Shown: positions 5,155 to 58,059, numbered from the stretch's first letter. The stretch: DNA of 64,000 bases from Candidatus Levybacteria bacterium RIFCSPHIGHO2_01_FULL_41_15 (GCA_001782165.1 MFNV01000002.1:81002-145001); one strand, 5' to 3'. Made by a program: numbers and translations. The notes: generated by a model not told the origin, from the sequence alone.

Positions 5155-5179
5155 ATTTGATTATCTGAGTAGCTAAGAA

Positions 5180-5545
5180 TTAACCACCAACAATAATTTT
5201 TCCATGAAACATATTCATTCCGCAGGAAAATTTAAATTCTCCTTTTTCTTTAGGATTAATCTCAACCGTCACTTTCTGATTTAAGGGCAGAAACTTTCTG
5301 ATATTAAAATCCGGCAGTACAACTTCCTCCAGACAACCTGAAGGGTCTTTTCTTAAAAAATTTATCTTTGTCTTTTTTCCTTTTGAAACTTCGATAACTT
5401 CTGGCGAGTAACCTCCGTCTATTGTAATATCAATACTATCTTCAGTTACTTTGATGACCTTATCTTTCTTCATCAAAAAAAACCAGAAGGTAAATAAAGC
5501 TCCAATCAAAGATGCAAAAGCTACGATAGTTTTGTCAATACCCAT
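5180..5545 (-). CDS. cupredoxin-like copper-binding protein (EfeO-type cupredoxin domain), membrane-anchored
   Basis: N-terminal TM helix, then a beta-rich domain ending FSCGMNMFHGKIIV (Cys...Met...His Cu site). Lies directly upstream of copA in the same orientation. Confidence 0.5.
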   Translation of the reverse strand: MGIDKTIVAFASLIGALFTFWFFLMKKDKVIKVTEDSIDITIDGGYSPEVIEVSKGKKTKINFLRKDPSGCLEEVVLPDFNIRKFLPLNQKVTVEINPKEKGEFKFSCGMNMFHGKIIVGG

Positions 5546-5549
5546 AATC

Positions 5550-5561
5550 CCCCCTAGGGGG
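5550..5561. promoter_or_regulatory. perfect 12-bp GC palindrome CCCCCTAGGGGG (candidate CsoR-type copper-responsive operator) overlapping the RBS region of the cupredoxin-copA operon
   Basis: aatCCCCCCTAGGGGGat lies 5-16 nt upstream of the cupredoxin start codon on the minus strand and about 120 nt upstream of dinB on the plus strand. C-tract/G-tract inverted repeats are characteristic of CsoR operators. Confidence 0.35.
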
Positions 5562-5679
5562 ATAGTAGCATGGAACCAGAGTTTCAGTCAAGAGGTACAA
5601 AAAAATTTAAACAATCTTGATGTCAAAAGTATCCTTTTGTCGTATTGTTTTTTTTCGTATTTTGTTCTACTTTTGTATT

Positions 5680-6969
5680 ATGAATCAGACCTGCCTTTCG
5701 GCGAGGCAAGTAATTCTTCATATCGACTTTGATTCGTTTTTTGCAAGCGTTGAACAGGAATATAATTCTAAGCTTCGGGGAAAACCCATAGGGGTCACGG
5801 CTACAAACGGAAGAACCTGTATTATTGCATCAAGCCGTGAGGCAAAAAAATTGGGAATTAAGACAGGAAGCAGATCCTATGATGCATTTAAAATCTGCCC
5901 TAGTTTAATTCTTGTTCCTGCTGATTTTGTCAAATACTTTGAGGTCTCTAAAAAGTTTCTTAGGATTTCCCAAGATTTTACTCCCTTTATTGAACTCTTT
6001 TCAATTGATGAAGTATTTATGGATATTACCCCTACCCTCCATTTATTTAATGATAATCCCCACAGAATTATTTTTGAAATTAAAAAAAGGATAAAAGAAG
6101 AAATTGGGGAATTTATAACGGTATCCGTTGGTATTTCTCATAATAGGCTTTTGGCCAAACTTGCCTCAGGCCTTAAAAAACCGGATGGAATATTTGAGAT
6201 TAATAAAGCAAATTTAGATAAAGTTTATAAAAATGCAAAACTTACAGACGTCTGCGGGATAGGTGAGCGAATCGCCGACAGATTAAATAAACTAGGGATA
6301 TATAATCTTTTGGATCTAAGGAATGAAAATATTCATATTCTGGAAAAGGAATTTGGGAAAGTTTATTCTAATGTTCTCAAGAACATTGGAATAGGTTTTG
6401 ACGATTCGCAAGTTGTTCCCTACACATTGGCACCAGATGTAAAATCTGTAGGAAGAAATTATTGTTTGCCTGCCAATGAATTTAATAAAAGAAAAATTCT
6501 ACAAAATACTTATGAACTGTGGGAAGAAGTCTGTATTAAGCTTCGAAGACTGAATAAAAAAGCAAGGACAATAGGATTTTCTTTGCGCGGAAATATCAAT
6601 ATTCATAAGAGAAAAACTTTTAATTTCCATTTTGATGATTCTAGGCAGATTTTTAATTTATTCAATTCTCTTTTTGATGAGGATAAAAATATATTTAATA
6701 AGAAGGGTTCTTATATTAGACAAATAAGCGTTTGGGTTTCCTCTTTGGAAGACGCGAAAAATCTGACCCTCCCGCTTTTTGATACAAATTATAAAAATAA
6801 TAAACTTTTATCTGCGGTTGATAAAATTAATGAACGTTTTGGGGATCATACAATTCGAAACGGCTTTCTCCTCTACTCCGATAAGCTTACGACAGTCCCC
6901 AACGGCTACATGGCAGATAAATACGAAAGGACCAAGCTCGCAAGGGAGTCAACTTTGGCTCCTGCATAA
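5680..6969 (+). CDS. dinB: DNA polymerase IV (Y-family translesion polymerase)
   Basis: ILHIDFDSFFASVEQ catalytic motif, then SIDEVFMDIT, VSVGISHNRLLAKLAS and a little-finger region. Start moved from the longest ORF (5617) to the in-frame ATG at 5680. Confidence 0.85.
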   Translation: MNQTCLSARQVILHIDFDSFFASVEQEYNSKLRGKPIGVTATNGRTCIIASSREAKKLGIKTGSRSYDAFKICPSLILVPADFVKYFEVSKKFLRISQDFTPFIELFSIDEVFMDITPTLHLFNDNPHRIIFEIKKRIKEEIGEFITVSVGISHNRLLAKLASGLKKPDGIFEINKANLDKVYKNAKLTDVCGIGERIADRLNKLGIYNLLDLRNENIHILEKEFGKVYSNVLKNIGIGFDDSQVVPYTLAPDVKSVGRNYCLPANEFNKRKILQNTYELWEEVCIKLRRLNKKARTIGFSLRGNINIHKRKTFNFHFDDSRQIFNLFNSLFDEDKNIFNKKGSYIRQISVWVSSLEDAKNLTLPLFDTNYKNNKLLSAVDKINERFGDHTIRNGFLLYSDKLTTVPNGYMADKYERTKLARESTLAPA

Positions 6970-7764
6970 AAAGTTCATCTCGGAGAGAACTTTTTCTTCC
7001 TGATCGGGGTTTAATCCCAAAATACTAATTTGGGATGGGTTCAGGCATATGTTTTTGCAAAGGACAATTCCATGAAGAAGAAGCATTTGCTTTTGGGAAG
7101 CAGTTAAGGATCTTATTGAGGTTATAGGATAAAGTTTTGCCTCCTCAACAAGTTCTCTTAGGCTTGCCTTTTCTGGATAATCCCAGCTTATTACCGTAAT
7201 TCCGCAGCAAAGTGAATATTTGAGAGCATCAGAGCTGACTTTGGTATTTGTGGTAATTAAGGCATGGTCAAAATGGTGCTGATATCTTAAGTCATCGAAT
7301 CTTGCTTTAGTATACAAAGCTACATGAACATCGGATTTTATTCCTGCTCCGTTGTGGAATTTTGCCTCTACCATAATTCGTTTTCCCCCTTTTTCTGCAA
7401 TTACATCTATCTCATGAGTGACGCATTTGCCCGCAAGAATTTGTCTTACTTTTGTTTCATATCCTTGAGTTTTTAGAATTTCAGAAATGTAATCCTCAAA
7501 CGGATAACCCGTAGGACCGAGCTCCATAATTCCCTTTTTTAAATTATATTTTGTTGCCAGAAACGGAGATGGTGAAGCATCAAGAAATTCGATTATATGG
7601 TCGTAGATTTCTCCTGTTGTTATATTTTCATACAATTTTGATTTAACATGGGTTAATACCTGTTCCTGAATATCATACGGAATTCCTGCTCTTTCAATTG
7701 AATTCAGAACCTTTTCTTCGGAAAACGGCTCCTTTTCCCCTGAGGCCTTGAGAACTGTAACCAT
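6949..7764 (-). CDS. ATP-cone domain fused to Mrr-like (PD-(D/E)xK) restriction endonuclease domain plus about 100-aa C-terminal region of unknown function
   Basis: N-terminus VLKASGEKEPFSEEKVLNSIERAG... (ATP-cone as in NrdR/RNR). Middle VTHEIDVIAEKGGKRIMVEAKFHN is the D-x(n)-E-x-K nuclease motif of Mrr_cat. Convergent with dinB and overlaps it by 21 bp. Confidence 0.55.
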   Translation of the reverse strand: MVTVLKASGEKEPFSEEKVLNSIERAGIPYDIQEQVLTHVKSKLYENITTGEIYDHIIEFLDASPSPFLATKYNLKKGIMELGPTGYPFEDYISEILKTQGYETKVRQILAGKCVTHEIDVIAEKGGKRIMVEAKFHNGAGIKSDVHVALYTKARFDDLRYQHHFDHALITTNTKVSSDALKYSLCCGITVISWDYPEKASLRELVEEAKLYPITSIRSLTASQKQMLLLHGIVLCKNICLNPSQISILGLNPDQEEKVLSEMNFLCRSQS

Positions 7765-7806
7765 ATTATTATCGTAGATGTTTTTGGAATAGTTTTACAA
7801 GAGGTG

Positions 7807-10194
7807 CTATTTTATTAACTTTCTCTTGAAAGCAATATAATCTTTTTTTTCGTATAAAATCTCAAATCTGGTGTCTTGTTTTAATTTTTCCGCTAATTCT
7901 TTTTGCGCCTCAAGAGAGGGTTGGGCAAAGGGATCGTTAAGAAGAAAAACTACATAATCTGCCTCCCCTACTCCAATTGGAATAGTAAAAATTTTTTGCC
8001 TTTGGGACAAATGAGAACCAAGATTGTTGGTTGCCGCTACACTTGCCTGTCTTGGAATTTTTTCCAATACATTTTCTATCTCGTCCCTTTCGGTAAGCTG
8101 GTTTGTAAAGACAGCTATATTTGCTTTTTTGGAAAATGGAAGCGGTCCCAAAAGATAAGAAGAATAGACTGCAAATAAAATAAGATAGAGGCCAAAAATC
8201 CGAGTGGGAATTTTTTGGAATTTTTTCATAATAAATCTAACACTGTAGATGGAAGAAATAAATAAGAATGGAACTATAGTTGAATTGTAATGATAGTAAA
8301 TTTCTCTTAACTGGGAATTTGCGCTTAATAGATTTATAAAAAAATCAGGAAGGGCAAAGAGAATAAATGGACTTAAGAACGGTAAGAATCCCAAGTTTAG
8401 AGTCAATGTATATAAATAATAAAATGGATTTCCCTGAAGAATCAGCGAGACTGTTTTTATGGGCGAGAAAATAAAATTGCCGATTATACTAGAGGGAGAA
8501 TCCCCCAGCTCTGAATAGTAAGATAATGCAAAATGCTCCGAGCCTTTAACAGCAGGAATTATCCTTGCAACAAGAAGGTAAAAAATCAAAAAAGAGATTA
8601 AAGCTAATAGACCACCAATCCACTTTCTTTTCCCTTTTATAAAAAGGTAAGTTCCAAAGATTCCCGCGATAGGCCAAACGTTCTCTTTAGAAAGAACAGC
8701 AAGAAATAGAAAAGATAAAAATGGAATTAATCTTTTTTTTACCATAAGATAAAAAGCTCCAAGAAGTAGAGTCGTTGAAATTGTTACCGGATGAAAATCA
8801 TAGAGGTTAGCATGCTGAATGTGCGGATTAAAAAGATATGCAACGGAAAAGATAAGTGAAAGATTTTTATTTTTTAAAACCTCTTTTGATATCAAAAAAA
8901 TAAACAGTGCTCCAAATGCCAAAACTATGGATTGAAGCACAAGTAGCATCTTTGGATGCGACCAGATAAGATAAAGAGGAGAAATTAAGATTAATATAAA
9001 ATCTGAATGAAAGGAAAGACGTGAAATTATATTCGTTCCGTCCGGATTTGTAAACTGAAAAATTCTTCCGTTTATGGTATTCCAGACCGTCTGATCCATA
9101 TTCCCCAAATCAAATCTTCCCGTAAAAAAATTATCGTAACGAAGGAAACTTACCGATGTGAAATAAAATATATAGCCAAATATTAAAATACAAAGAATCG
9201 CTTCTCTTAAGTTTCTTTCTAAAAAATTCTCTGCTTTTAGAAAAAATTTGTTTTTTATGTTTCTTAAACCAGCTACAATCAGAACAAATAAAACTTCCGA
9301 GATAATTAATACAATTCTTGCAAATATCGAGGACAATCCTGCTATTTCAAGAGGAATAAGCTTGGCAAGTCCATATGTTATAAACCCTTCCCTTACTCCC
9401 AAGCCCATCGGAGCAATAACGGACAAAAAACTTACAAGGAAAGAAAGAGCGAAAAAACCGGTTAAGTATAGGCTTTTGTCAACCGGAAGATAGACAATTG
9501 AGGAAACTGCAAGATATGATGCGAAGGAAAAGGCAAAAAAAGAGGCGGAGGAGATGAAAACAAGAATAAAGTTTTCATATGGGTTAAATCTGGGAAGAAC
9601 AAGAAAAATATAATTAAACGGCTTGGGAAGATTAACTTTCCTGATTATTTTTTTGTTGAAGATATAGAGAGTTGTAAGAATAAGGGCCAATAAGATAATT
9701 AAAAAAGAAAAGATGCTGTTTTTAACAAGAGTTAAATATTGAAAAACAAAAGGAATCGAGAATAAAGAAATAATAAAAGCACCTGTGGCAATTAGACTGA
9801 TCTCCGAAAGAATCATACTCGCAATCGTTTCCTTATCTACTCCTTTTTTTGAGAAAGAAACGGTTTTGCCTAAATAGGACCAGATAAATCCCGGAACAAA
9901 TCTTCTAAACTCTGCCATGGTCCAGAGATATGAGGTTTCCTTAAAGGGGATGTTGTATCCATTGAAGATTAATAACTTTTGCCACGTTAGGGCTCTTAGA
10001 AAGAAAAATATAAGAAAGAAAAAAAATGAAGGAATAAGAAGGAATAAATTCGGAGTTATAAGGTAGGGAAAGACTTCATTAAAATTTGAGAATATTAGAT
10101 TCGTTAAGAAAACTAATGCGACAGCTGAAATTGGCCATCCCAAAAGGTATTTGAGACTTTTTAAGAAAACCTCCTTCCTTGATTTTTTATTCAT
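7807..10194 (-). CDS. large polytopic membrane protein: N-terminal flippase-like (UPF0104/LPG-synthase-TM-like) region fused to a DUF2079-like GT-C-type domain
   Basis: 795 aa, more than 20 predicted TM segments. C-terminal soluble tail ...[27 protein letters not shown]... resembles DUF2079 termini. Confidence 0.35.
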
Positions 10195-11380
10195 ATCGCA
10201 AGGCTTCGATTGGAGAAAGTTTCGAGGCTCTTATAGCAGGAGCCATTCCAAATACAACTCCTACTATAACAGAAAATCCAAAAGCGATAAATACAGACCA
10301 TATTGTAACTTGAGATACCAAAAGTCTTGCAAGGATCAATGATCCTGTTATGCCTAGCATTATGCCGATTACTCCTCCTGTTAAGGAAAGAATAACTGCC
10401 TCAAGAAGAAATTGCTTTAATATATCAGCTCTTCTTGCGCCAAGTGCTTTTCTAAGACCTATTTCACGGGTTCTTTCTGTAACTGAAACAAGCATTATGT
10501 TTGCAACACCGATGCCTCCAACTAGAAGGGAAATTGCCGCAATGCCGCCCAAAGCAAGCGATAAAATATTAGTTACATTGGTGACAATTTCAAGACTTGA
10601 TTCTGCAGTTTGTATAGTGAATTCATCTTTGGTCAACCGTTTAAGAAGAACACTGCTAATCTGGTCTTTTATAAATGGAATTTGAGATTCGTTGTTTGCC
10701 GAGATATAAATAGCATTGACTTGATTTACGCCAAACTGCCTTTTAGCCGAAGATAAAGGAATTATGACAGTATTGTCCTGATCGATTCCAAAAATTGCTC
10801 CGCGTTTCTTTAAAACACCGATGACAGTGTAAATGTTGTTTCCTATAAAAAATCTTTTGCCGACAGGTTCCTCAAGTTCAAATAGGTTATTTTTAACGGT
10901 CTGTCCTATTACGGCAACTTTTGCACCTGATAACTCCTGGCTTTGGGAAAAATATCTTCCATGCTCAACGACCGCGTTCTTGACAGTCTTAGTATAATTT
11001 GCAGTTGTCCCAAGTATAGATGTTTCCTCGTCATCTTTGTTTTGATACTTTGCAGTTGTTATTTGCTGAATGACAGGTGCAATGTCGGCCACATTCTTTA
11101 ACTTTACCGAAAGATTTTGGGAATCTTGGATCAGAAGTTTATTTACCATAACTCCTCCGGGGGTTCTTGCGCCTCCTAGTCTTCCGGGAATTATAAATAT
11201 TAAATTTGACCCAAATCCCTGTATCTGATTTGTTATATACGTCTGAAGCCCTGAAGCAATTGAAACCAGAAGAATAATTGCAAATACGCCTATTACAATT
11301 CCTAAAGTTGTTAAAAAACTTCGAAGCTTATTTGCCAATAGCGCTCTCCATGACAGTTTTAGAAGTTCGTTTAAGTCCAT
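10187..11380 (-). CDS. ABC transporter permease, MacB/FtsX family
   Basis: N-terminal TM, large periplasmic MacB_PCD-like domain, then C-terminal FtsX 3-TM bundle ([27 protein letters not shown]). 397 aa. Confidence 0.85.
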
Positions 11381-11382
11381 GT

Positions 11383-12057
11383 TTAGCTAATTTTTCCGTC
11401 AATAAGTTCAATAACTCTTTTTGCGTGTTTTGCGATATCTCTTTCGTGCGTTATGAGGATAATTGTTTTCCCTTCTCTATTCAATTTTTTTAACAAGCGC
11501 ATAACATCCTGTCCTGATTTTATATCCAGGTTTCCTGTTGGTTCGTCGGCCAAAATTAAATCGGGATTATTCATTAAGGCTCTTGCAATCGCAACTCTCT
11601 GTTGCTGTCCTCCTGAAAGCCGATTCGGTCTTTTGCTCTCTTGTTCAAGAAGGTCGAGTTTCAAAAGCAAGTTTCTTCCTTTTTCTTCCCTTGTTTTTTT
11701 ATCGACGCCGGCATAAATCCCTGGAAGGATAACATTTTCTAAAACCGTAGAACGAGGAAGAAGATTAAAGGATTGAAATACAAAACCTATTTTTCTGTTT
11801 CTTAGATCCGACAGTTCATCTTCTTTAAACTTTAAAACATCTGCTTCTTCAAGGATATATGAACCGTTTGTTGGAGTATCCAAAAGTCCGATAAGGTTCA
11901 TGAGGGTGGATTTTCCGGATCCCGACCTTCCTGTTATGGCGATAAACTCTCCCCGTTTTACCTTAAGGTAGATCCCCTTCAATACTTTTGTGACAACGTC
12001 ACCTATCACATAATCTTTGGTTATATTTATGAGATTTATTAACTCTTGATCTTTCAT
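11383..12057 (-). CDS. ABC transporter ATP-binding protein (MacB/LolD-type)
   Basis: Walker [13 protein letters not shown] signature [15 protein letters not shown], Walker [14 protein letters not shown]-loop ITHE. Confidence 0.95.
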
Positions 12058-12065
12058 CTCTCACT

Positions 12066-13169
12066 TTAACGTCTTAAGAATCTTCTCAAAAATGGGATTC
12101 TCAAATCCCCTTGTTTTGGTATTGAGCTTATATCGCTTGCAATTGTGTCGTTTTCTGACAGCCCTTCTGTAATTTCTGCTCTTGTATCGCTCTGAAGTCC
12201 TAGTTTTACTTTTTTTTGCGAGAACCCGGATTCTGTTTTTACATATACATTATCGTCTTCAATGGCCGATAAAGGAACTGATAAAACATTATTTTTTTCG
12301 CTTATGATAATTTCGGCATTTCCATTCATCCCAACCCGATATTTGTAATCTTTGTAATCAGGAGGTATCGGTATCTTTGCCGATACGGTGAAAGCATCAC
12401 CTCCCGTTGATGTGGTATGAGATACGTAATCGATGCCATCAATAGTTAAAGCAAGTGTTTCATCGGGATAGGAATCGAGAACTACTCTTACTGATTGTCC
12501 TACTTTTACTTTTCCTATATCCGCCTGGTCTACGTCCATCTCAAAATTTAACGAATTTAAATCTGTTACCATAAATGTCGTTGTTGTTGAAATATTTATA
12601 CCTTGGGTTTCTGCATCTGCTTTTGTAATCACTCCTGATATTGGAGTTATAAGAGCAGACTCTTCTCTAGCAAGATCTGCAAGTTCAACCGACTTTACGG
12701 ATTTATCAAGATCATATTGATTATTTTGAAGAATTCTTCTCATGCTTTCATTTAATGCACCCTCGATGGTTCTATTTTGATTATTTTCTTTTGTTTGGTC
12801 AAAGGTAAGTCTCTGTTTTGAATAATCAATGAGCGCAATTTCTAAATTTTTCTGCACAGTTCGCTCGTCCAACGCTCCGATTGTCTGATTGGCATAAACA
12901 TAGTCCCCCTTTTTAACCCCCAAATAAACCAGCTTTCCTGAGACCCTAAAGCTTAAATTTACCGTGTTACTAGAGTCAACGCTGCCTGTAATAGAGATTG
13001 TTTGAGAAATATTTTCTTTTCTTACTTTTTCTGTGGCAACCGGAGTCTGTTCTCCGGGCTTAAAGACAAATAAAATTACTATAAGGGCTAGTAAAATAAC
13101 AAATGAAATTATTTTATGGATTTTTACAAATTGGATCGCAAAATCAACCCATTTTCTAAAATTCTTCAT
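12066..13169 (-). CDS. efflux periplasmic adaptor / HlyD-family protein (MacA-like)
   Basis: N-terminal TM anchor, biotinyl-lipoyl-like (VKKGDYVYANQTIGAL) and beta-barrel segments. Operon with the ABC ATPase and permease. Confidence 0.7.
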   Translation of the reverse strand: MKNFRKWVDFAIQFVKIHKIISFVILLALIVILFVFKPGEQTPVATEKVRKENISQTISITGSVDSSNTVNLSFRVSGKLVYLGVKKGDYVYANQTIGALDERTVQKNLEIALIDYSKQRLTFDQTKENNQNRTIEGALNESMRRILQNNQYDLDKSVKSVELADLAREESALITPISGVITKADAETQGINISTTTTFMVTDLNSLNFEMDVDQADIGKVKVGQSVRVVLDSYPDETLALTIDGIDYVSHTTSTGGDAFTVSAKIPIPPDYKDYKYRVGMNGNAEIIISEKNNVLSVPLSAIEDDNVYVKTESGFSQKKVKLGLQSDTRAEITEGLSENDTIASDISSIPKQGDLRIPFLRRFLRR

Positions 13170-13241
13170 AACGTAACTGAAGATTATACCACAGAAGGAA
13201 TAATAGTGCTATGGGATACGAAGTTTATGATAAATTTTTTG

Positions 13242-13314
13242 CGCGCCTGAAGGGAGTCGAACCCCCAACCCCTTCGTCCGAAGCGAAGTGCTCTATCCAT
13301 TGAGCTACAGGCGC
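13242..13314 (-). tRNA. tRNA-Arg(TCG)
   Basis: rc: GCGCCTG/TA/GCTC-AATGGAT-AGAGC/A/CTTCG-CTTCGGA-CGAAG/GGGTT/GGGGG-TTCGACT-CCCTT/CAGGCGC/G. Anticodon UCG. Body is nearly identical to the Arg(TCT) gene at 1347. Confidence 0.85.
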
Positions 13315-13368
13315 ACGGTTTACACTGAGCGATTCGGTTGAGCTCATCGTCGAAGCCTTGCCGAAGTG

Positions 13369-13441
13369 TGAGCCGCCGGCGAGTCGAACGCCGAACCGAT
13401 TCCTTAAGAGGGAATTGCTCTGCCAGTTGAGCTAGCGGCCC
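13369..13441 (-). tRNA. tRNA-Lys(CTT)
   Basis: rc: GGGCCGC/TA/GCTC-AACTGGC-AGAGC/A/ATTCC-CTCTTAA-GGAAT/CGGTT/CGGCG-TTCGACT-CGCCG/GCGGCTC/A. Anticodon CUU. Confidence 0.85.
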
Positions 13442-13450
13442 GTCCGCTAA

Positions 13451-13479
13451 ATTATACTATAAGAGCTATATCATAACAA
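13451..13479 (-). promoter_or_regulatory. sigma70-like promoter (TTGTTA-17-TATAAT) for the tRNA-Lys/tRNA-Arg pair
   Basis: On the minus strand TTGTTAtgatatagctcttatagTATAATttagcggac immediately precedes tRNA-Lys G1. TSS predicted within a few nt of the mature 5' end. Confidence 0.45.
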
Positions 13480-13509
13480 CATTTACCTTCCTTCATATCC
13501 GACTACAAT

Positions 13510-13672
13510 CATTTTGTTAATCAGGTAGCGAAGTTGTTTCACCTTTAAGGTGACGAGCAAAACAGGTAGCGAGGCTATTTTAGTACCGTAGACTGTTCTA
13601 CTGTACAAAAACACGGGTAGCGAGACTTAAGACAGTGAAGCTGTTTCACCTCAAGGTGTTGGAATATAAAAC
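13510..13672. repeat. three imperfect direct repeats (41 and 51 bp apart), each with core CRGGTAGCGAR followed by a hairpin
   Basis: Cores at about 13522 (CAGGTAGCGAAG), 13563 (CAGGTAGCGAGG) and 13614 (CGGGTAGCGAGA). Hairpins: TCACC-TTTAA-GGTGA; GTACCGTAGA-ctgt-TCTACTGTAC; CACC-tcaa-GGTG. Confidence 0.5.
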
Positions 13673-13679
13673 GTTTAGC

Positions 13680-14345
13680 TTACCTTCGTAGTTTAATGTA
13701 GTTTTTAATCACTGATATAACATTATTAAGATCGCATGTCACAGATGCTCCGGCGTTTAAAAGTTCTTCCCTCGAGTGATTAGTTAGAACTCCAATTGGA
13801 ATAGCGCCAAATTCTTTTGCGATTTTCATATCCGCAGGGCTATCTGCAACAAAGATAGTTAAATTTGGTTTTCGTTCTTGGATTATCTGTCTAAAATGAT
13901 CAGCTTTTGAGCTGTTTCGACCACCAGTGCCCAATATTAAATCAAAATTGTGCGAAACACCGTTGAGATTTGCTAAATATTTAATTTCTTCTGTGGGAAT
14001 ACCGCTTGATATAAAAGTAAAATTAAAGTTAGTACGGGCAAATTTGAGAAGTTCCAGCGCCCCATCTAATAGCTTAACTTGCGGATAATATTTACTCTTC
14101 AATAAATTGCTGTATTCTGATTCAATAACTTCGTAGGTCTCATCTGCTAATTTCTTGCCAGAATGGTTTTCATAGAAATGATCAAATTTATATCTCCTTG
14201 AGGTTCCGCCTTTCTCCATCCAAAACCTTGATGCTTCATCTTTATCAACTCCCCATTCTCTATAAAGAAGTTCGCCGAATGCCGATGCTTTTTGAGGCTC
14301 AATATTAATAATTACTCCGTCATAATCTGTTCCAAAGATTTTCAT
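13680..14345 (-). CDS. HAD-superfamily hydrolase (phosphatase-like)
   Basis: N-terminal MKIFGTDYDGVI (DxDG nucleophile motif), later S/T and K/D-D motifs. 221 aa. Confidence 0.65.
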   Translation of the reverse strand: MKIFGTDYDGVIINIEPQKASAFGELLYREWGVDKDEASRFWMEKGGTSRRYKFDHFYENHSGKKLADETYEVIESEYSNLLKSKYYPQVKLLDGALELLKFARTNFNFTFISSGIPTEEIKYLANLNGVSHNFDLILGTGGRNSSKADHFRQIIQERKPNLTIFVADSPADMKIAKEFGAIPIGVLTNHSREELLNAGASVTCDLNNVISVIKNYIKLRR

Positions 14346-15016
14346 AGGAACTTATTTAAATTAAATGAGGTGCGGTGGATATCAGAGAGACCGTATTTTC
14401 TCATAGCCTTTTGATGATATTTGGTTCCATAACCTTTGTTACGGGAAAATCCGTATCCCGGATATTTTCTATTGAGTTTTTTCATTAATTTATCTCTATA
14501 AACCTTTGCAATAATTGATGCGGCGGCAATAGAAATGCTTTTTTGGTCACCTTTAATTATACCTTTTTGGTGGGAAAGCCCTACCCCGCGGATATAGCGG
14601 ATATGAAACCCGTCTGCTAAGACAAAAATAAGTGACCTGTTCTTCGCTTGGTTTGTTGTTCGCTTTATGGTAGCCATAATACATTTTCTCATTGCTTTTT
14701 GGGTTGCTTTTCCGATTCCAATTTTGTTTATCGTTGATATCCCTACTTTGGAAATAGCAAATGAGAGAACCTTTCTTTTTATTTCTTCTGAAAGAATCTT
14801 ACGGAGTTTTGGGGCAACAAGCTTTGAATCATTTATCTTTGAAAGTAGTCCGCCGTCAAGTTTATAGCCCTTTTTAAATATAACAGCGGCGGCAACAACT
14901 GGCCCTGCAAAGCATCCCCTTCCTACCTCATCCACCCCTATCACATAGACAATTCCTTTTCTCCACAGCTTTTTTTCCTCAGAAAAATTTGGAAATTTCA
15001 TAGAGTTATTATACAA
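14342..15016 (-). CDS. rnhB: ribonuclease HII
   Basis: VIGVDEVGRGCFAGPVVAAAVIF (DEVGRG active site), LADGFHI, SIAAASIIAKVYRD. Confidence 0.9.
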   Translation of the reverse strand: MYNNSMKFPNFSEEKKLWRKGIVYVIGVDEVGRGCFAGPVVAAAVIFKKGYKLDGGLLSKINDSKLVAPKLRKILSEEIKRKVLSFAISKVGISTINKIGIGKATQKAMRKCIMATIKRTTNQAKNRSLIFVLADGFHIRYIRGVGLSHQKGIIKGDQKSISIAAASIIAKVYRDKLMKKLNRKYPGYGFSRNKGYGTKYHQKAMRKYGLSDIHRTSFNLNKFL

Positions 15017-15040
15017 TTTTAATATTAATCTAAAAAATAC

Positions 15041-15445
15041 ATGAGGACAATCATAAGAAACATTGTTTTCTATTCATTTTCTTTATTCGCTCTGACTCAA
15101 ATTATTTCTGGAGTTAAAATTACAGGAGGAATTGAGACTTTTGTTTTGGGAGGAGCGGTATTGTCTATAATGTTTCTTATAATAAAACCAGTGCTTGACC
15201 TTATTGCTCTGCCTTTTAATTTACTTACGCTTGGAACGTTTTCTTTTCTTTCAAATACTGTGATTCTTTACCTTCTTACTCTTTTTGTTCCCGAAATTAA
15301 GGTAACGTCCTTTTTATTCAAAGGTTTTTCCTATTCAGGATTTATAATTCCCCGAACAGAAGTAAATCAAGTTTTTGCCCTTATAGTGTCAGGACTTACT
15401 CTATCTGCTATAATTACTTTCCTGACATGGTTAATAAGAAAATAG
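15041..15445 (+). CDS. small 4-TM membrane protein (DUF360/phage-holin-superfamily-IV-like)
   Basis: 134 aa, four hydrophobic helices, no enzymatic motif. Confidence 0.35.
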   Translation: MRTIIRNIVFYSFSLFALTQIISGVKITGGIETFVLGGAVLSIMFLIIKPVLDLIALPFNLLTLGTFSFLSNTVILYLLTLFVPEIKVTSFLFKGFSYSGFIIPRTEVNQVFALIVSGLTLSAIITFLTWLIRK

Positions 15446-16380
15446 TTTGTCTTGGAGGCGGGGTGGGAACTGCCAATCTCCTCCGTGGTATTAAGGAGTA
15501 TTTCAACGATATTACCGTAGTCGTTTCAATGGCGGATGACGGAGGCTCTGCGGGAAGATTAAGGCGATATTACAAAACTTTTCCCACGGGTGATATTATA
15601 AATTGTTTGATTGCGCTATCGGAAGCAGACCGTACATTAATAGATCTTCTTAAGTACAGGTTTAAAGGACGAAGATATGGCCCTGATAATTTACTGCCCG
15701 GACAAAAACTTGGAAATCTTATTCTTGTCGCCTTGAGTTCAATAAAAGAGGATTTCAACAAAGGGCTTTTGGAGATTCAAAGGATATTTAAGACAAAAGG
15801 TAAAATTTACCCTTCTACCACAACCCCAATATCCATCTGGGCAAAAACATCCACAGGCCATATCGTAACAAGGGAAGAGAATATAGATCTTGGCAGATTC
15901 AAGGGGCAGATCAAAAAGCTCTTTATAAGACCCAAGAATCCCGATGTAGATGAAAAGGTACGCAAGTCTATAAGAAACGCAGATATAATAATAGCAGGCC
16001 CTGGAGATCTTTATACTACAATTCTTCCCGTTCTTATGGTACCGTCCATCCTTGGGGATATCAAAAAATCAAATGCAGAAAAGTTATTTGTTGTAAATGT
16101 AGCGAATAAGCCGTTTGAAACACCAAGATACACAATAGAAGACTTTGCGCAGGCTATAAAAAAGCACTGCGGAGATATCATTTTTAATACCTTTTTGATA
16201 AATAATAACCAAAAGCCTGAAATCCCACAACAGTGGCGACATCAATATAAATATGTACCTCTTTTAAATGGGCAGAATAGGTACCCCTTCAAAGTAATCG
16301 AAGATGATGTGGTTTATGAAGGTTTTCCTCTCTATCACGATTCGGAAAAACTTGCAAAAGCAATTGCAAAGAATATATAA
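15427..16380 (+). CDS. YvcK/CofD-like protein (UPF0052; gluconeogenesis factor family)
   Basis: IVCLGGGVGTANLLRGIK and VVSMADDGGSAGRLRR...PTGDIINCLIAL match the UPF0052/CofD signature. Confidence 0.75.
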   Translation: MVNKKIVCLGGGVGTANLLRGIKEYFNDITVVVSMADDGGSAGRLRRYYKTFPTGDIINCLIALSEADRTLIDLLKYRFKGRRYGPDNLLPGQKLGNLILVALSSIKEDFNKGLLEIQRIFKTKGKIYPSTTTPISIWAKTSTGHIVTREENIDLGRFKGQIKKLFIRPKNPDVDEKVRKSIRNADIIIAGPGDLYTTILPVLMVPSILGDIKKSNAEKLFVVNVANKPFETPRYTIEDFAQAIKKHCGDIIFNTFLINNNQKPEIPQQWRHQYKYVPLLNGQNRYPFKVIEDDVVYEGFPLYHDSEKLAKAIAKNI

Positions 16381-16388
16381 TTTTATTT

Positions 16389-16601
16389 ATGTTTTTTATA
16401 AAATTTATCCAAATTATAATACCGATTGCTTTAATAGGAACAATACTTCTTCAAGTTCAGGGATCGGGGTTGTCAAGGACTTTCGGCGGAGGCGGAGAAT
16501 TTTATCGAAGCAAACAAAGTATAGAAAAAATATTGATTTGGGCAACCGTTGTTCTTGCTTTTTTGTTTGGACTCATATCTCTGCTTTTTTCCGCTAAATA
16601 A
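16389..16601 (+). CDS. secG: preprotein translocase subunit SecG
   Basis: 70 aa, two TM helices flanking LLQVQGSGLSRTFGGGGEF (SecG LLQ...GGG motif). Confidence 0.65.
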   Translation: MFFIKFIQIIIPIALIGTILLQVQGSGLSRTFGGGGEFYRSKQSIEKILIWATVVLAFLFGLISLLFSAK

Positions 16602-16616
16602 TATAAAATTGTTTTT

Positions 16617-17972
16617 ATGATCGTATTCAGACGGCGCCTGATTTTTTGGCTGATCAGAGCATATTTTAAGAAATGGGGAAAAACAATTCTTGTTTTCTTT
16701 ATACTTGGGCTTCTCGTATTTTTTGCGCTCAGATATTTTGTAAGAATAATACCTTCGGCTTTTCCTTTTCTTTCAAGAGAAACTGTGGGAATTGCGGGTA
16801 CATATACAATTAATGACCTTCCTCCCTCAATTTTTTACAAAATTTCAAGAGGGCTTACATTTGTTGACAAAGGTAGCGTCGTAAGACCCGATATTGCAAA
16901 AAGCTGGAAAATCGGGAACAATGGAAAGGAGTACACGTTTTATTTAAAAAATAATATCTACTTTGCAGACGGAACTCATTTTACATCAAAATATATAAAC
17001 TACAACTTCAAAGATACGCAGGTTAAAAGGCCCGATGACTATACGATTACCTTCGTCCTTAAAGAACCATACTCGCCTTTTCCTGTCACAGTAGCAAGAC
17101 CTATTTTTAAAAAGGGATTTGTCGGTGTAGGAGATTATCGGGTTAAATATATAAAATTTAATGGAGATTTTGTATCCTCTATTGATCTTGTGTCAAATTT
17201 TGAACCACCTCATATTATAAGATATCAATTTTTTCCTACTGAGGAGGCTTTAAAAATGGGCTTTGTTGTGGGTGATGTTTCAAGAGCTTTAGGAATTCAT
17301 GACCCCTTGTTTAAAGGAAAAAAATTAACTTCATTCAAGTCTGTAAAATCCTCAAGATCACTTGATGAGAAAAAACTGGTGACAGTTTTCTATAATACAA
17401 AAGATCCCACTCTTTCTGATAAAAGGGTGCGGGAAGCTTTTTTTTATGCAATGCCCGATGCTTTTGAGGATGGAGAACGGAATTCTTCCCCCTTTTCCCC
17501 AAGTTCATGGGCAAGTACGGGAACCAAAATTTCTCTTCAGGATTTAGTGCATGCCAGGGAACTCATATCTTCCTCGGAATCCGCATCGAAATCCTCAGGT
17601 CTTACATTTACGCTTAAGACTCTCCCCCAGCACAGAAAAACCGCAAATATTATTAAAGAGAACTTCAAAAAAATTAATGCCATTCTTAAAATTGAGGAAG
17701 TTGATTCAGTTCCATCTCAATTCCAACTTTTTTTGGGAGATTACAACCTGCCCAAAGATCCCGATCAGTATACCTTATGGCACTCAGAACAAACAAGTAA
17801 TATAACGGGGTACAAGAATCTTAGAATTGATAAGCTTCTTGAAGACGGCAGAAGAGTCTCTGACATTAACGAAAGGAAGAAAATTTACACTGATTTTGAA
17901 AAGTATCTTCTTGATGATCCGCCGGCTTCTTTTCTCTATCTTCCCTATACTTATACTATTTTCAGAGACTAG
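16617..17972 (+). CDS. extracellular solute-binding protein, family 5-like (peptide/nickel SBP fold), membrane-anchored
   Basis: N-terminal TM, then VRPDIAKSWKIGNNGKEYTFYLKNNIYFADGTHFTS (SBP_bac_5 signature region). No cognate permease nearby. Confidence 0.55.
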   Translation: MIVFRRRLIFWLIRAYFKKWGKTILVFFILGLLVFFALRYFVRIIPSAFPFLSRETVGIAGTYTINDLPPSIFYKISRGLTFVDKGSVVRPDIAKSWKIGNNGKEYTFYLKNNIYFADGTHFTSKYINYNFKDTQVKRPDDYTITFVLKEPYSPFPVTVARPIFKKGFVGVGDYRVKYIKFNGDFVSSIDLVSNFEPPHIIRYQFFPTEEALKMGFVVGDVSRALGIHDPLFKGKKLTSFKSVKSSRSLDEKKLVTVFYNTKDPTLSDKRVREAFFYAMPDAFEDGERNSSPFSPSSWASTGTKISLQDLVHARELISSSESASKSSGLTFTLKTLPQHRKTANIIKENFKKINAILKIEEVDSVPSQFQLFLGDYNLPKDPDQYTLWHSEQTSNITGYKNLRIDKLLEDGRRVSDINERKKIYTDFEKYLLDDPPASFLYLPYTYTIFRD

Positions 17973-19246
17973 GACTTAACTGTTTTTGAAAAGATCGTTC
18001 TGTGGTATGAAACGGCAAACCTGTGGGCTTCATCCCGAATTCTCATTACTAAATGTAAAGCTTTGGAGTTCTTTGGTAATTTAATTACGGCAAAATCCGA
18101 TGTTACTATTGTTTCTTCTCTTTTTGCAATTCCGATTAGAGGAATATCAAGATTTTTTCTTTTGAATACTTTTTGAGCAGAAGATACCTGTCCTTTCCCT
18201 CCATCTATTATTATCAAATCTGGAAATGGCCATTCCCTATGATTTAGTCTGCGCGATACAACTTCTGAAATCATCGCAAAGTCATTTGGTTTTCCTTTTG
18301 TAAATCTTATCTTAAATCTTCTATAAAGTGATGTTTCTTTTTCTCCGTTTATAAAAACAACCATGGAGCCTGTGGAAAACTTTCCTGAGATATTTGATAT
18401 GTCGAAAGATTCGATTCTTTTAAGTGAGGAGACTTGCGACTCTGTGTTTTTAAGTTCTTTTTTTAAGACCAACAGCTCTTCATTTTTTATATCTTCTTTT
18501 AGATTGGGATTAACTTGAGAGTCAAAAGAGGGATAAGAAGGACTTGTAGCAATTAGAATCGAGTTTATTTTTTCCTGAAGATTATTTGCTTTTTCATATT
18601 CTTCCTTTTTGCTTTCCGTATCTCTTTCTTTTTCTAAATCTCTTAGTACTTTTTTTGTTCCCCCCGATAGAAAGTTAATTATATGATTTATGTTTTTTCT
18701 ATATTTCTTTTTAAGATTTTCACTGTCAAAAACAGGCGGGCATGGACATAACCTCAGATGGTTATAAAGACAGATTCTTTTCGGGTGGCTTAGAGCAGAT
18801 TGAAAGGGAAATATTTTCCTGATTGTTTTTAAAACAAGCCTCATAGCCCCTGTATTAGGATAAGGACCAAAATAAATTGAGTTTTTGTCGTCTTGTCTTC
18901 TTGCTATAAGGACCTTAGGATACTTATCTTTTTTGGTAATTCTGATAAGGGGATATACTTTTCCGTCTGTAAGTCGTAAATTGTAGAAAGGTAAATATTT
19001 TTTTATGTAATTTGCTTCAAGAAGGAGAGCTTCTATTTCGGAGTGAGCTTTTACTGCTTTTACTTTATGTGTTTTTTTTATGAGGATTCGGGTTTTTTCT
19101 CCTAAGCTTTTACGGTTGGCAAAATAACTTGTGACCCTTTTTTTTAGGTTATTTGCTTTTCCGACATAAAGGACACTACCCTTTTTGTCCAAAAAAAGGT
19201 ATATTCCAGGATTTGAAGGCAAGTGCTGATATAAAAATTGCGACAA
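17969..19246 (-). CDS. uvrC: excinuclease ABC subunit C, short form lacking C-terminal (HhH)2 domain
   Basis: N-terminal GIY-YIG (PGIYLFLDKKGSVLYVGKANNLKKRVTSYF), C-terminal RNase-H-like endonuclease (LIIIDGGKGQVSSAQ...RDEAHRFA). 425 aa. 5' end overlaps the upstream ORF by about 70 nt. Confidence 0.75.
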   Translation of the reverse strand: MSQFLYQHLPSNPGIYLFLDKKGSVLYVGKANNLKKRVTSYFANRKSLGEKTRILIKKTHKVKAVKAHSEIEALLLEANYIKKYLPFYNLRLTDGKVYPLIRITKKDKYPKVLIARRQDDKNSIYFGPYPNTGAMRLVLKTIRKIFPFQSALSHPKRICLYNHLRLCPCPPVFDSENLKKKYRKNINHIINFLSGGTKKVLRDLEKERDTESKKEEYEKANNLQEKINSILIATSPSYPSFDSQVNPNLKEDIKNEELLVLKKELKNTESQVSSLKRIESFDISNISGKFSTGSMVVFINGEKETSLYRRFKIRFTKGKPNDFAMISEVVSRRLNHREWPFPDLIIIDGGKGQVSSAQKVFKRKNLDIPLIGIAKREETIVTSDFAVIKLPKNSKALHLVMRIRDEAHRFAVSYHRTIFSKTVKS

Positions 19247-21011
19247 TTAATATTCCTCCTCCTACAACCAACCCCCATTTACTAAAGAGAATCGGGTAAA
19301 TTCTTACTCTGCGTTCAAACAAATTTGATCCAAGGCCAATTCTAATAAGATCTGTTCTATTTGTCAAAGGATTTGCCGCCTCAAACGATAAAGGCAAGAC
19401 TAAATTTCCGTATGGAGGTATAGGTTTTAAGTAAATATTTTGTAAATTGGGCTTGAGATAATAAGATCTGACTGTAATTTTTTGGGGAAAAGAGAGCAGT
19501 GTTCCCGTATTTTCCAGCGTAATATTTCCCATAAGGGGAAGTCCTGCTGTCAGATTTTTGGGGATGTTGTCTGAAATTTCAAGGGTCGGGCTGGTGTGTG
19601 CAAATTCATTAGCAAAACTGACTCTTACATCTTTAACTTTTTCATTCCCCGGCAGTTTATACCCGCCTGCAGGAACCGGATAGGTACTGTCGTGCCCTTT
19701 TATTACAAACGCAATGTGGTCAAAATCAAGAGTCTCAAAATAATCTATTCCGCCGGTTGTATTCCCCCAAGTAGGATCAACCATAATCCACGCGGCTTTT
19801 TCTCTATCATAGTATTCAGGCCAGGCATGCAAAACATCCTTTACCAAAGACAAAGGCCTTTCTCTGGTATTTTGAGTATAGGCGTATCCGTCCACCTCTC
19901 TTGCCGGAATTCCTGAAGCTCTTGCCAATGCAATAAAAAGATCTGTAAATTCAAGACACACTGCGGATTCAGGTTTTTGAAGCACTCCGGCGGCGCCTAT
20001 TCTGGGTTTTTCAGTCTCAACTCTTGAATAATCGTATTTTAATTTTTTAACAACGTACTCATATATAGATTTCGGGTTTTTAAGGTTTCTTGACAGCTGT
20101 TTGATTTCGTTATTTGATATCTGCCAATACTTGTCTTCCTTTAGGTAGCTTTGCAGTTGTTCTTCGGTGTAGTTTTGCTTTTCAGGAAAAAGAGAGATTT
20201 TGACTTTTGCCTTCAAGGATACATCAAGCCTTTGAGAGGAGGAAAGAGTATATTGTGCAAGCCAATTTCCATCCTCATCTATCGTTACGTTTGAAGGCTT
20301 AGGGTTAATGCTGTCTATCTCAACTTCCTGATACCCTGTATTAGGAGGAAGAGCTATTTCTGTTTTAATAGGAAAAAGGTTTTTATTATAGAGGTGATAG
20401 GTCAAATCTAATTTATAAATCTGCTCATTTCCAAACGTAATTGAAATACCCGAATTCCCAAGCTGGTCTTTTGAAAAGGTGTAAATGTTTTCATTTTTCT
20501 TAAGTCCATCTGAAAGGCTGGGTTTGACAAAACTTGGAGAGCCAAAAGAGGAAGGGACGGAAACATAAACACTAAAGTCTGATAAATCAGATTGGCTTAA
20601 AAAACCTGGTATATTTACTTCCCATATTTTGCCTACTTTTCTGGCAACTTCATTAGTATCAAAAGCAATTGTAAAATTTAGCTTGTTTCCAAGACCCGTT
20701 ATCCTGTCATTGAAAATAACATTTATTTCCTGTCCTTCGGAGGTTTTAGAAACACTCTTAAGAATATTGCCTCCTAAGTCAGATGCTCTCGGATTTTTAG
20801 GATCATCAAAACCCACGTTTATTTTGTAAGAAGATGCATAATATGATGAAGTTTTATTCGTAAGGGCAACTTTTATCTCAACACGGGTATTTCCGTTTTC
20901 TGAAACCGCATATGATATGTCATAATCCGCATCAAAATTTGAAGATGCCGATGTTTTCCCAGGCAGAAAAAGGAGGAATAGAAGCAAGAATACCAATAAT
21001 ATTTTTTTCAC
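19176..21011 (-). CDS. secreted, C-terminally membrane-anchored transglutaminase-like (Cys-His-Asp) domain protein
   Basis: Signal peptide MKKILLVFLLLFLLFLPGKTSA. Core CLEFTDLFIALARASGIPAREVDGYAY...LHAWPEYYD...WIMVDPTW (C/H/D triad). C-terminal TM WGLVVGGGILIVAIFISALAF. Confidence 0.7.
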   Translation of the reverse strand: MKKILLVFLLLFLLFLPGKTSASSNFDADYDISYAVSENGNTRVEIKVALTNKTSSYYASSYKINVGFDDPKNPRASDLGGNILKSVSKTSEGQEINVIFNDRITGLGNKLNFTIAFDTNEVARKVGKIWEVNIPGFLSQSDLSDFSVYVSVPSSFGSPSFVKPSLSDGLKKNENIYTFSKDQLGNSGISITFGNEQIYKLDLTYHLYNKNLFPIKTEIALPPNTGYQEVEIDSINPKPSNVTIDEDGNWLAQYTLSSSQRLDVSLKAKVKISLFPEKQNYTEEQLQSYLKEDKYWQISNNEIKQLSRNLKNPKSIYEYVVKKLKYDYSRVETEKPRIGAAGVLQKPESAVCLEFTDLFIALARASGIPAREVDGYAYTQNTRERPLSLVKDVLHAWPEYYDREKAAWIMVDPTWGNTTGGIDYFETLDFDHIAFVIKGHDSTYPVPAGGYKLPGNEKVKDVRVSFANEFAHTSPTLEISDNIPKNLTAGLPLMGNITLENTGTLLSFPQKITVRSYYLKPNLQNIYLKPIPPYGNLVLPLSFEAANPLTNRTDLIRIGLGSNLFERRVRIYPILFSKWGLVVGGGILIVAIFISALAFKSWNIPFFGQKG

Positions 21012-21112
21012 TTAGAATAAGTATATAATTAAAAGCTTAAAACTGAAAGCTGAAAGCTAAAAGCTTAAAACTTTTTAAATTAAATAAGTAGCCAGGATAT
21101 AAAAAAACGAAA

Positions 21113-23998: not shown

Positions 23999-24120
23999 AT
24001 AAATCAATCTTTTATTATAGAGGAAAAAAAGAAGCGAGACAATCGTTTATCTAGAAATCAATCCGGGGTCTATGTTTGGCTCAACCGGAATTTTTATTTC
24101 AATCTCCAAAAATTTGATAT

Positions 24121-38267: not shown

Positions 38268-38347
38268 ATCCACTCATTTAAAATTCTTAAGAAAATGGGA
38301 ATAATTAAAAAATAAAAAATTATTCTGATTTGCTATAATAATTAAGC

Positions 38348-57825: not shown

Positions 57826-58006
57826 GCCGGAGTAACTCAGTGGTAGAGTAGCTCTTTCGCCCGCCTGCCATAGCTTGCCAGGATAGCTCAGCTGGTAGAG
57901 CAAGGCTTTCGTAAAGCCGAGGTCGTGGGTTCAAATCCCACTCCTGGCTCAGGCAAGCGGCGGACAGGTAAAGAGCAAGTCGTGGGTTCAAGTCCCACCT
58001 CCGGCT
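57826..58006 (+). tRNA. interrupted 'host' tRNA (Thr-like identity; anticodon depends on splice sites) carrying a 116-nt anticodon-loop intervening sequence that contains tRNA-Thr(CGT)
   Basis: 5' half GCCGGAG/TA/ACTC-AGTGGTA-GAGT/A/GCTCT (57826-57855). 3' half AGAGC/AAGTC/GTGGG-TTCAAGT-CCCAC/CTCCGGC/T (57972-58006). 7/7 acceptor, 4/4 D, 5/5 anticodon, 5/5 T stem pairs. T-arm nearly identical to the nested tRNA-Thr. Confidence 0.6.
57877..57949 (+). tRNA. tRNA-Thr(CGT), nested inside the intervening sequence of the host tRNA
   Basis: GCCAGGA/TA/GCTC-AGCTGGT-AGAGC/A/AGGCT-TTCGTAA-AGCCG/AGGTC/GTGGG-TTCAAAT-CCCAC/TCCTGGC/T. Anticodon CGU. G1-C72 and C2-G71 are Thr-type. Confidence 0.85.
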
Positions 58007-58059
58007 CACATTCTGTACTAAGTTTAATTGAAGTAACTCGTACTGAGTTTTATCGAAGT

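Follow-up and report, generated by a model that had tools for sequence, protein, structure and literature searches.

Between the 3' end of a HAD-family hydrolase gene and two tRNA genes of Candidatus Levybacteria bacterium RIFCSPHIGHO2_01_FULL_41_15, a member of the candidate phyla radiation (CPR), lies an array of about 160 bases (13510-13672 of the 64,000-nt stretch analysed here, called the window) in which an 11-nt box recurs beside hairpins. This module is real, selected-looking, very narrowly distributed, and dispensable, and it belongs to the broad class of intergenic repeats made of stem-loops and a box. The explanation that fits best, which we put forward tentatively on comparative grounds, is that it may act at the RNA level, as stem-loops and a single-stranded recognition box at the 3' end of the upstream transcript.

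Boxes and hairpins of the array

A sequence-only reading of the window had described three repeats with cores at 13522, 13563, and 13614, spaced 41 and 51 bp apart, each with an inverted repeat, between a HAD hydrolase gene and the promoter of tRNA-Lys/Arg. These elements were recovered as described: the cores (CAGGTAGCGAA, CAGGTAGCGAG, and CGGGTAGCGAG, respectively) and all three inverted repeats were located (Table 1), and both flanking features were found at the expected places. The length given for the repeats, about 45 bp, had to be revised, as only 18-21 nt align between units, with 67-83% identity, and Tandem Repeats Finder reported nothing. The idea of repeat-plus-hairpin units stands insofar as each box copy adjoins an inverted repeat, but the repeated part amounts to 11-21 nt per unit and the hairpin sequences are unrelated. 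Contrary to the statement that no ORF covers the region, a 43-aa ORF with a GTG start overlaps it, though it is not conserved in the related locus L013 and has no Pfam match. Its two boxes are read in different frames, and a coding repeat was therefore rejected.

Table 1. Coordinates of the array and its neighbours, in minus-strand order
Feature	Position	Strand	Sequence	Remarks
HAD-family hydrolase gene	13680-14345	-		PF00702, PF13419; the array comes after its stop codon
Hairpin A	13647-13658	-	CACC-ttga-GGTG (plus strand CACC-tcaa-GGTG)	21 nt past the HAD stop; then AAACAGC
Decayed fourth box	13629-13640	-	CTTCACTGTCTT	After GGTGAAACAGC; repeat family D1, third copy, 67% identity
Box U3b	13614-13624	-	CTCGCTACCCG	Exact core match
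Hairpin B	13576-13613	-		Whole 38-nt U3b-U2 segment, an imperfect palindrome
Hairpin B core	13583-13606	-	GTACaGTAGA-acag-TCTACgGTAC (plus strand GTACCGTAGA-ctgt-TCTACTGTAC)	
Box U2	13563-13573	-	CTCGCTACCTG	Exact core match
Hairpin A'	13539-13553	-	TCACC-ttaaa-GGTGA (plus strand TCACC-TTTAA-GGTGA)	Then linker AACAAC and box U1; fold z = -2.25
Box U1	13522-13532	-	TTCGCTACCTG	Copy closest to the tRNA-Lys promoter; within the 23-nt block GGTGAAACAACYTCGCTACCTGA
43-aa ORF	13483-13614	-		GTG start
tRNA-Lys/Arg promoter	13479-13451	-	TTGTTA-17-TATAAT	Context, outside the array
tRNA-Lys(CTT)	13368-13441	-		Downstream of the array
Hairpin X copy	13333-13357	-	GGCTTCGACGATGAGCTCAACCGAA	In the tRNA-Lys/tRNA-Arg spacer; homologous to the box-adjoining hairpin in L013 and L054
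tRNA-Arg(TCG)	13241-13314	-		Downstream of the array

The sense strand of the hydrolase and tRNA genes is the minus strand, on which the array unit reads hairpin, GAAACARC linker, box. The box itself has the minus-strand consensus YTCGCTACCYG (11 nt, C-rich) and is present in three intact copies and a decayed one. Read in this direction, the HAD stop codon and 21 nt are followed by hairpin A (CACCttgaGGTG), AAACAGC, the decayed box, aagt, and box U3b; then come hairpin B, GC, box U2, and ttttgctcg; and the array closes with hairpin A' (TCACCttaaaGGTGA), AACAAC, and box U1, 42 nt from the tRNA promoter. The decayed box, which had been overlooked in the sequence-only reading, has a context (GGTGAAACAACTTCGCTACCTG) that parallels that of U1. 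On the two strands of the 64 kb, GGTAGCGA has exactly three matches, all inside the array and within a span of 100 bp (shuffle mean, 0.57 per window). No one-mismatch copy of the 11-mer exists elsewhere in the window, and two-mismatch matches are at chance level (27 versus 20.9 expected).

The three hairpins of the window are mutually unrelated in sequence, beside one and the same box. GUGAAAC comes after two of them and UAAAAU after the third, and the linkers, which contain the box, measure 28-40 nt. Hairpin B folded alone reached -11.3 kcal/mol (z = -3.0), with equally stable structures in 2 of 200 shuffles, and hairpin A folded alone was no more stable than shuffles. The fold of the whole 181-nt region was no better than that of shuffles on the minus strand (z = -0.93) or the plus strand (z = -0.27).

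No intrinsic terminator, i.e. a G+C-rich stem-loop directly followed by a U-tract, was found on either strand of 13500-13680; the hairpins are followed by AAACA, UAAAA, or CGAGC instead. Nor does a hairpin followed by GAAAC recur behind other genes of the window, as a general terminator signal would. Over 20 kb of the window (4001-24000), hairpins with a U-tract numbered 15, compared with 16.7 in shuffles, which is no enrichment. The source genome may thus not rely on canonical intrinsic terminators, and because these are not enriched, non-canonical stem-loops at transcript 3' ends are plausible.

ARAGORN and the Rfam tRNA model, run on 12900-14000, found the two annotated tRNAs only, and the array itself gave no tRNA-like match. 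A relic of a tRNA 5' end was rejected, the match to positions 4-14 of tRNA-Lys being 8/11 and within chance. A fragment or mimic of 23S rRNA was also discarded: there is an exact match of 8-10 nt, but the array as a whole aligns at chance level. We also dismissed a likeness to parS, as TGTTTCAC corresponds to what we take to be one half-site only, with no second half adjacent to it. Within about 10 kb on either side of the array, we found no gene for a regulator or DNA-binding protein and no cas genes or domains. The neighbourhood of the array in the window was also free of transposase and recombinase genes, and neither the window nor the related loci indicated a candidate binding protein.

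The module in related genomes

Independent assemblies yielded ten contigs of the same species with this region. Nine are identical over it; in the tenth (L006), the differences are confined to an error-laden end, an odd tail that looks like low-quality sequence. No strain variation was seen among them over the region. Seven of the ten (in the set L002, L004-L010) stop inside tRNA-Lys or the array at the same few positions (about 13412-13550 of the window). For the breaks inside tRNA-Lys, a probable cause is that its sequence is identical in co-occurring relatives such as the L013 species, which comes from the same sample (ERZ27254767).

In more distant relatives, the locus has the gene order SBP, SecG, CofD, holin-like, RNase HII, HAD, a variable part, tRNA-Lys/Arg, MFP (the membrane-fusion protein of an efflux pump, encoded downstream of the tRNAs), ABC, and FtsX. 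The segment from HAD to the tRNAs is very fluid, and a GT5 glycosyltransferase gene is present or absent at the locus; none was found anywhere in the window. The promoter block (G/A)TTGTTAT-N16-TATAGTATA is kept in L013, L015, L017, L054, and L058.

In the search for the repeat in the rest of the window and in related genomes, which the sequence-only reading had called for, only two related genomes, L013/L046 (one species) and L054, had the box at this locus. It is absent from seven related loci with a conserved promoter or MFP operon (L015/16, L017/18, L052, L053, L056/57, L058, and L059), and because these have the tRNA promoter or the MFP operon without the box, the element is dispensable. 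By way of the HAD protein, we reached L013 with the box and L015 and L017 without it; L049 and L050 were uninformative. By way of the MFP protein, the box was found in L054 only, and L052, L053, and L056-L059 lacked it. A scan of genome contigs with the HAD protein yielded two distant loci, without synteny. There were no dispersed copies of the exact box or of hairpin X (see below) in the 64-kb window, and none off the syntenic site in about 115 kb of related loci. Scans with the extended box gave 15 matches in a viral collection, all apparently due to chance and devoid of hairpin context, and 15 in metagenomes, where the sole true relative was L046; the chance matches in both were mostly inside genes of unrelated organisms. 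Searching phages and plasmids by blastn returned nothing.

Compared with the window, L013 has HAD and MFP proteins that are 64 and 58% identical (i.e. about 40% divergence), and the MFP of L054 is 69% identical. In L013, the GT5 gene comes after HAD, and 11 nt past its stop codon there is a decayed box (CCACTACTTG), followed by AAAG, a hairpin that we call X (GCTTCGGCcgtgagctcaGCCGAAC), GGTGAAACAAC, an intact box identical to U2, and then 26 nt to the tRNA-Lys promoter. The L013 sequence GGTGAAACAACCTCGCTACCTGA is identical to the U1 block of the window at 22 of 23 positions, and this block and the promoter are the only ones that can be aligned between the two genomes upstream of the tRNA. In L054, an intact box (TCGCTACCTG) stands 13 nt past the stop codon of the GT5 gene. 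Behind it come AAAG, hairpin X in a longer form, and AGTGAAATCA; a second and a third hairpin, with GUAAAA and UAAAAC as linkers, then lead to a decayed box (CCTCTCCACCTC). Here the module occupies the gap between two convergent genes, GT5 and, on the opposite strand, a DUF5678 gene, whose 3' ends face each other, and the tRNA-Lys promoter is about 740 nt away. The modules of L013 and L054, folded alone, were no better than shuffles.

Each relative thus has one intact and one decayed box around one or more hairpins. The base of hairpin X and its flanks are identical between L013 and L054 at 33 of 33 positions, compared with 79% for the third codon positions of the adjacent GT5 gene. The module has a constant orientation and begins close behind the co-directional gene upstream, 20 nt past the stop codon in the window, 11 nt in L013, and 13 nt in L054. 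From the box to the -35 element of the tRNA promoter there are 42 nt in the window and 26 nt in L013, as against about 740 nt in L054. Judging by the layouts of the two relatives, in which an intact and a decayed box come behind a stop codon, the ancestral unit would be box-hairpin(s)-box directly behind the stop codon, and the window would hold an expanded local version of it behind HAD.

A further copy of hairpin X is found in the window, on the minus strand of the spacer between tRNA-Lys and tRNA-Arg (13315-13367); compared with the spacers of L013 and L054, it is an insert of about 27 nt, followed by TCGCT. Two substitutions in this copy break pairs and are not compensatory, and it is not flanked by boxes. 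From the alignment, we also infer that, at hairpin A', the junction of TCACCTTAAAGG with TGAAAC resembles the L054 sequence TCGCTACCTGAAAGG-hairpin X-GTGAAA minus hairpin X.

The same locus shows other rearrangements. In L054 (2177-2350) and L053 (2031-2300), tRNA-Lys is followed by one or two units of 85-100 nt, respectively, each of which repeats at its end the final 17 nt of tRNA-Lys, with CCA on the last copy only. The first 24 nt of these units (CACTTCGRCAAG..CTCAGTGTAAAC) are homologous to the tRNA-Lys trailer of the window and L013, and Rfam reported no ribozyme or intron in them. The E. coli tyrT distal repeats (rtT region) also contain copies of a tRNA 3' end. They share with the present locus the presence of repeated noncoding units at a tRNA gene, which in L053 and L054 end in a copy of the tRNA-Lys 3' end, but differ in that the window array lies upstream of the tRNA promoter and is without significant tRNA-derived sequence. 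In L058, a 583-aa ORF (229-1991) with a Resolvase N-terminal domain, of the large serine recombinase type, abuts an inverted tRNA-Lys(CTT), and tRNA-Lys is also inverted relative to tRNA-Arg in L015/L016. To judge from these arrangements, the locus appears to be a recombination hot spot in the clade.

Possible roles of the array

We tentatively favour a module acting in RNA at the end of the upstream transcript, a reading that is possible rather than probable. We infer transcription of the minus strand, formation of the hairpins, and reading of the box as RNA. The stem-loops would end the HAD mRNA (in the relatives, the glycosyltransferase mRNA) or protect it at its 3' end, and would insulate it from the separately promoted tRNA-Lys/Arg unit, and the single-stranded box would be the recognition site of a putative RNA-binding protein or endonuclease. 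A structured RNA or 3'UTR element was among the options of the sequence-only reading, and it is the one that best fits the comparative data, with the module just after a stop codon and in the same orientation, though at the level of a candidate. Degenerate terminators, another of these options, are unsupported in the canonical sense, no U-tract being present on either strand; a non-canonical role at transcript 3' ends may still apply. In keeping with a role in RNA, the L054 module sits between convergent gene ends, where no promoter is expected; the exact box is kept in at least one copy per genome beside unrelated hairpins; and hairpin X recurs on the same strand in the transcribed tRNA-Lys/Arg spacer. 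Against it, neither the 181-nt region nor hairpin A nor the L013 and L054 modules fold better than shuffles, the changes in the window copy of hairpin X break pairs, the module is present in three genomes only, and an exact 11-mer at roughly helical spacing (41/51 bp) resembles DNA-binding sites. The same orientation in three syntenic loci may reflect shared descent rather than independent evidence.

REP/BIME-type extragenic palindromes form stem-loop arrays at mRNA 3' ends, which stabilise the upstream mRNA. Like them, the hairpins of the array lie right behind a stop codon, have no U-tract, and stand beside a short conserved sequence, and the plus-strand box contains GTAG, as REP does. A genome with REP elements has, however, tens to hundreds of them, dispersed and often paired in inverted orientation, while here there is one cluster in 64 kb, with all repeats direct, and the relatives have it at the syntenic site only. 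The many dispersed copies that define a REP element or MITE were thus lacking in the 64-kb window and in the 115 kb of relatives.

On another reading, the boxes would be sites in double-stranded DNA, an operator or iteron array at which a regulator of the tRNA-Lys/Arg promoter binds, and the hairpins would be incidental. Three exact direct repeats indeed precede a well-conserved promoter, and their spacing puts them on roughly one helical face; L013 has a box 26 nt upstream of the same promoter, and conservation of an exact 11-mer is typical of protein-DNA sites. Comparable arrays of activator sites or repeats are the three FIS sites upstream of E. coli rrnB P1 and plasmid iterons, with which the array shares three direct repeats at roughly integral helical turns, here upstream of a tRNA promoter. 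The likeness ends with the distance between array and promoter, which is not fixed (42, 26, and about 740 nt), with the relatives, most of which have the promoter without the repeats, and with the lack of a known cognate protein. The array has at least three regularly spaced direct repeats, as expected of an operator, but not a conserved position relative to the promoter in orthologous loci: between the window and L013, the distance differs by 16 bp, about 1.5 helical turns, and the intact box of L054 is far from the promoter, between convergent gene ends. Seven related loci with the promoter lack the box, the 10 kb or so to each side of the array contain no gene for a DNA-binding protein, and a hairpin adjoins the box in every genome. 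The iteron-like sites that the sequence-only reading had also proposed are weakened by the unfixed distance and by the seven box-less loci, and we regard an operator as unlikely. The RNA module fits better than an operator because the position behind the stop codon and the orientation are kept and the distance to the promoter is not.

It is likewise improbable, in our estimation, that the array is a functionless scar of a recombination hot spot, left by palindromes that were inserted or copied beside a preferred target box, with duplication of the box. In favour of this, the segments between boxes are largely palindromic and flanked by near-identical 11-bp direct repeats; in both relatives, hairpin X stands between two boxes, of which one is decayed, and in the window hairpin X appears to have been cleanly inserted (about 27 nt) into a further site as well, the tRNA spacer. 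The locus is also highly rearranged (presence or absence of GT5, inversion of tRNA-Lys in L015 and L058), the 583-aa ORF with the Resolvase N-terminal domain abuts tRNA-Lys in L058, and the tRNA 3' end is duplicated in L053 and L054. What weighs on the other side is that no dispersed box or hairpin X was found in the 64 kb, in about 115 kb of relatives, or in the viral, plasmid, and phage collections, that the copy of hairpin X in the tRNA spacer has no flanking boxes, and that three unrelated palindromes would have had to use the same 11-mer target. No transposase or recombinase gene is near the array in the window. Moreover, at least one exact box persists per genome despite about 40% divergence of the flanking proteins, which argues for selection.

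Other readings turn to the plus strand and to known RNA families. With Rfam, no family other than tRNAs scored above threshold, either in E-value mode (window region, L013, L053, and L054) or in gathering mode (whole window). Matches below threshold were to Gut-1 (L054 only), CRISPR-DR43, and sR39. We consider it very unlikely that a plus-strand small RNA starts from 13482-13509 and carries three modules of GGUAGCGA plus a hairpin that mimic the 23S rRNA around position 1929, or that the minus-strand boxes are antisense to that site. A promoter-like sequence, TTTACC-16-TACAAT (13482-13509), does end 10 nt before the first repeat; it matches at 9/12 positions, such matches occur at chance density, and no equivalent is visible in L013. 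In E. coli 23S rRNA, GGTAGCGA occurs once, at position 1929 (1929-1936); U1 agrees with AGGTAGCGAAaTT at 12 of 13 positions, and behind it, as in the rRNA, comes a 5-bp hairpin. Nevertheless, the alignment of the array with 23S rRNA is at chance (34 of 200 shuffles were as good), and the conserved flanks of the box (CA before, RG after) do not follow the rRNA. The window and L013 also matched the archaeal C/D sRNA sR39, through its guide, at 10.9 and 8 bits versus a family threshold of 50; these weak matches are explained by the identity of GGTAGCGA with 23S 1929-1936. There is no C box, and CUGA is found after U1 only among the intact boxes of the window, as well as after the intact boxes of L013 and L054.

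Gut-1 (RF01706) consists of three hairpins joined by GUGAAAU, is reported from human gut metagenomes only, and is treated as a free-standing noncoding RNA (Weinberg et al. 2010, PMC2864571). The L054 array matched its full model at 29.7 bits (E = 3e-4 to 2e-3; gathering threshold 50), and neither the window, at E <= 10, nor L013 gave a match. The linkers around the three hairpins of L054 are UGAAAU, GUAAAA, and UAAAAC, to be compared with GUGAAAU. What is shared is the tandem arrangement of small hairpins, purine-rich linkers of the GUGAAAU type (two window hairpins are followed by GUGAAAC), and the noncoding nature; the window linkers are, however, far longer and carry the 11-nt box, which Gut-1 lacks, and the score is under the threshold. 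As far as the sequences indicate, the likeness is thus one of architecture, not membership. It would be a highly speculative step, and we think the odds are strongly against it, to see in these arrays a CPR family of multi-hairpin RNAs related to Gut-1, whose box, the complement of the universally conserved 23S 1928-1937, would pair with rRNA or, on the other strand, mimic it, and whose part at tRNA loci might be that of a guide, a decoy, or an assembly factor.

We give almost no credence to an orphan array of processed RNA repeats, such as a type III antitoxin or a degenerate CRISPR array. The three units of 41-51 nt and a match of hairpin A to CRISPR-DR43 could be taken for it, as could the ToxI repeat, which also has AGGTGA and GCTACCT. 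Yet the units are not near-identical, sharing 11-21 nt (at least 23 nt for a CRISPR repeat), and the CRISPR-DR43 score (18.3 bits, E about 1) falls short of the family threshold, 35. Neither strand has a toxin-like ORF after the array: downstream are the tRNA genes on the minus strand and HAD antisense on the plus strand, not the toxin gene that a type III antitoxin would precede, and no cas genes lie within about 10 kb.

tRNA genes of the window and significance

Elsewhere in the window, two tRNA genes are nested in others. tRNA-Thr(CGT) (57877-57950, plus strand; region 57826-58008) lies in the anticodon loop of an outer tRNA gene, which it splits into a 5' half, GCCGGAGTAACTCAGTGGTAGAGTAGCTCT, and a 3' half, AGAGCAAGTCGTGGGTTCAAGTCCCACCTCCGGCTCA. 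The sequences on either side of the inner gene (CGCCCGCCTGCC and GGCAAGCGGCGG) are complementary, and deletion of the insert of about 118 nt produced a sequence called by ARAGORN as tRNA-Thr(GGT); the outer gene as it stands was called by neither ARAGORN nor Rfam. tRNA-Gly(CCC) (38400-38472, plus strand; region 38340-38530) is flanked by the two halves of another tRNA-like gene, whose anticodon loop it likewise occupies. Deletion of this tRNA with 10-22 nt on each side left valid cloverleaves, with an anticodon that depends on the junction chosen. Rfam reported no group I intron at the nested genes, and the other seven tRNAs of the window are not nested. A published survey of tRNA introns in Patescibacteria describes group I introns only. 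These nested genes may deserve more attention than the array.

The locus of the array shows how fluid tRNA neighbourhoods are in these genomes. To our knowledge, transcript ends and the processing of mRNA and tRNA are essentially uncharted in CPR bacteria. Confined to three genomes and one locus, the array is of value mainly as a small, well-delimited test case. It might give the orphan Gut-1 motif its first relative with a genomic context, and if it is true that the module acts in RNA, it would be among the very few cis-acting RNA signals described for CPR bacteria.
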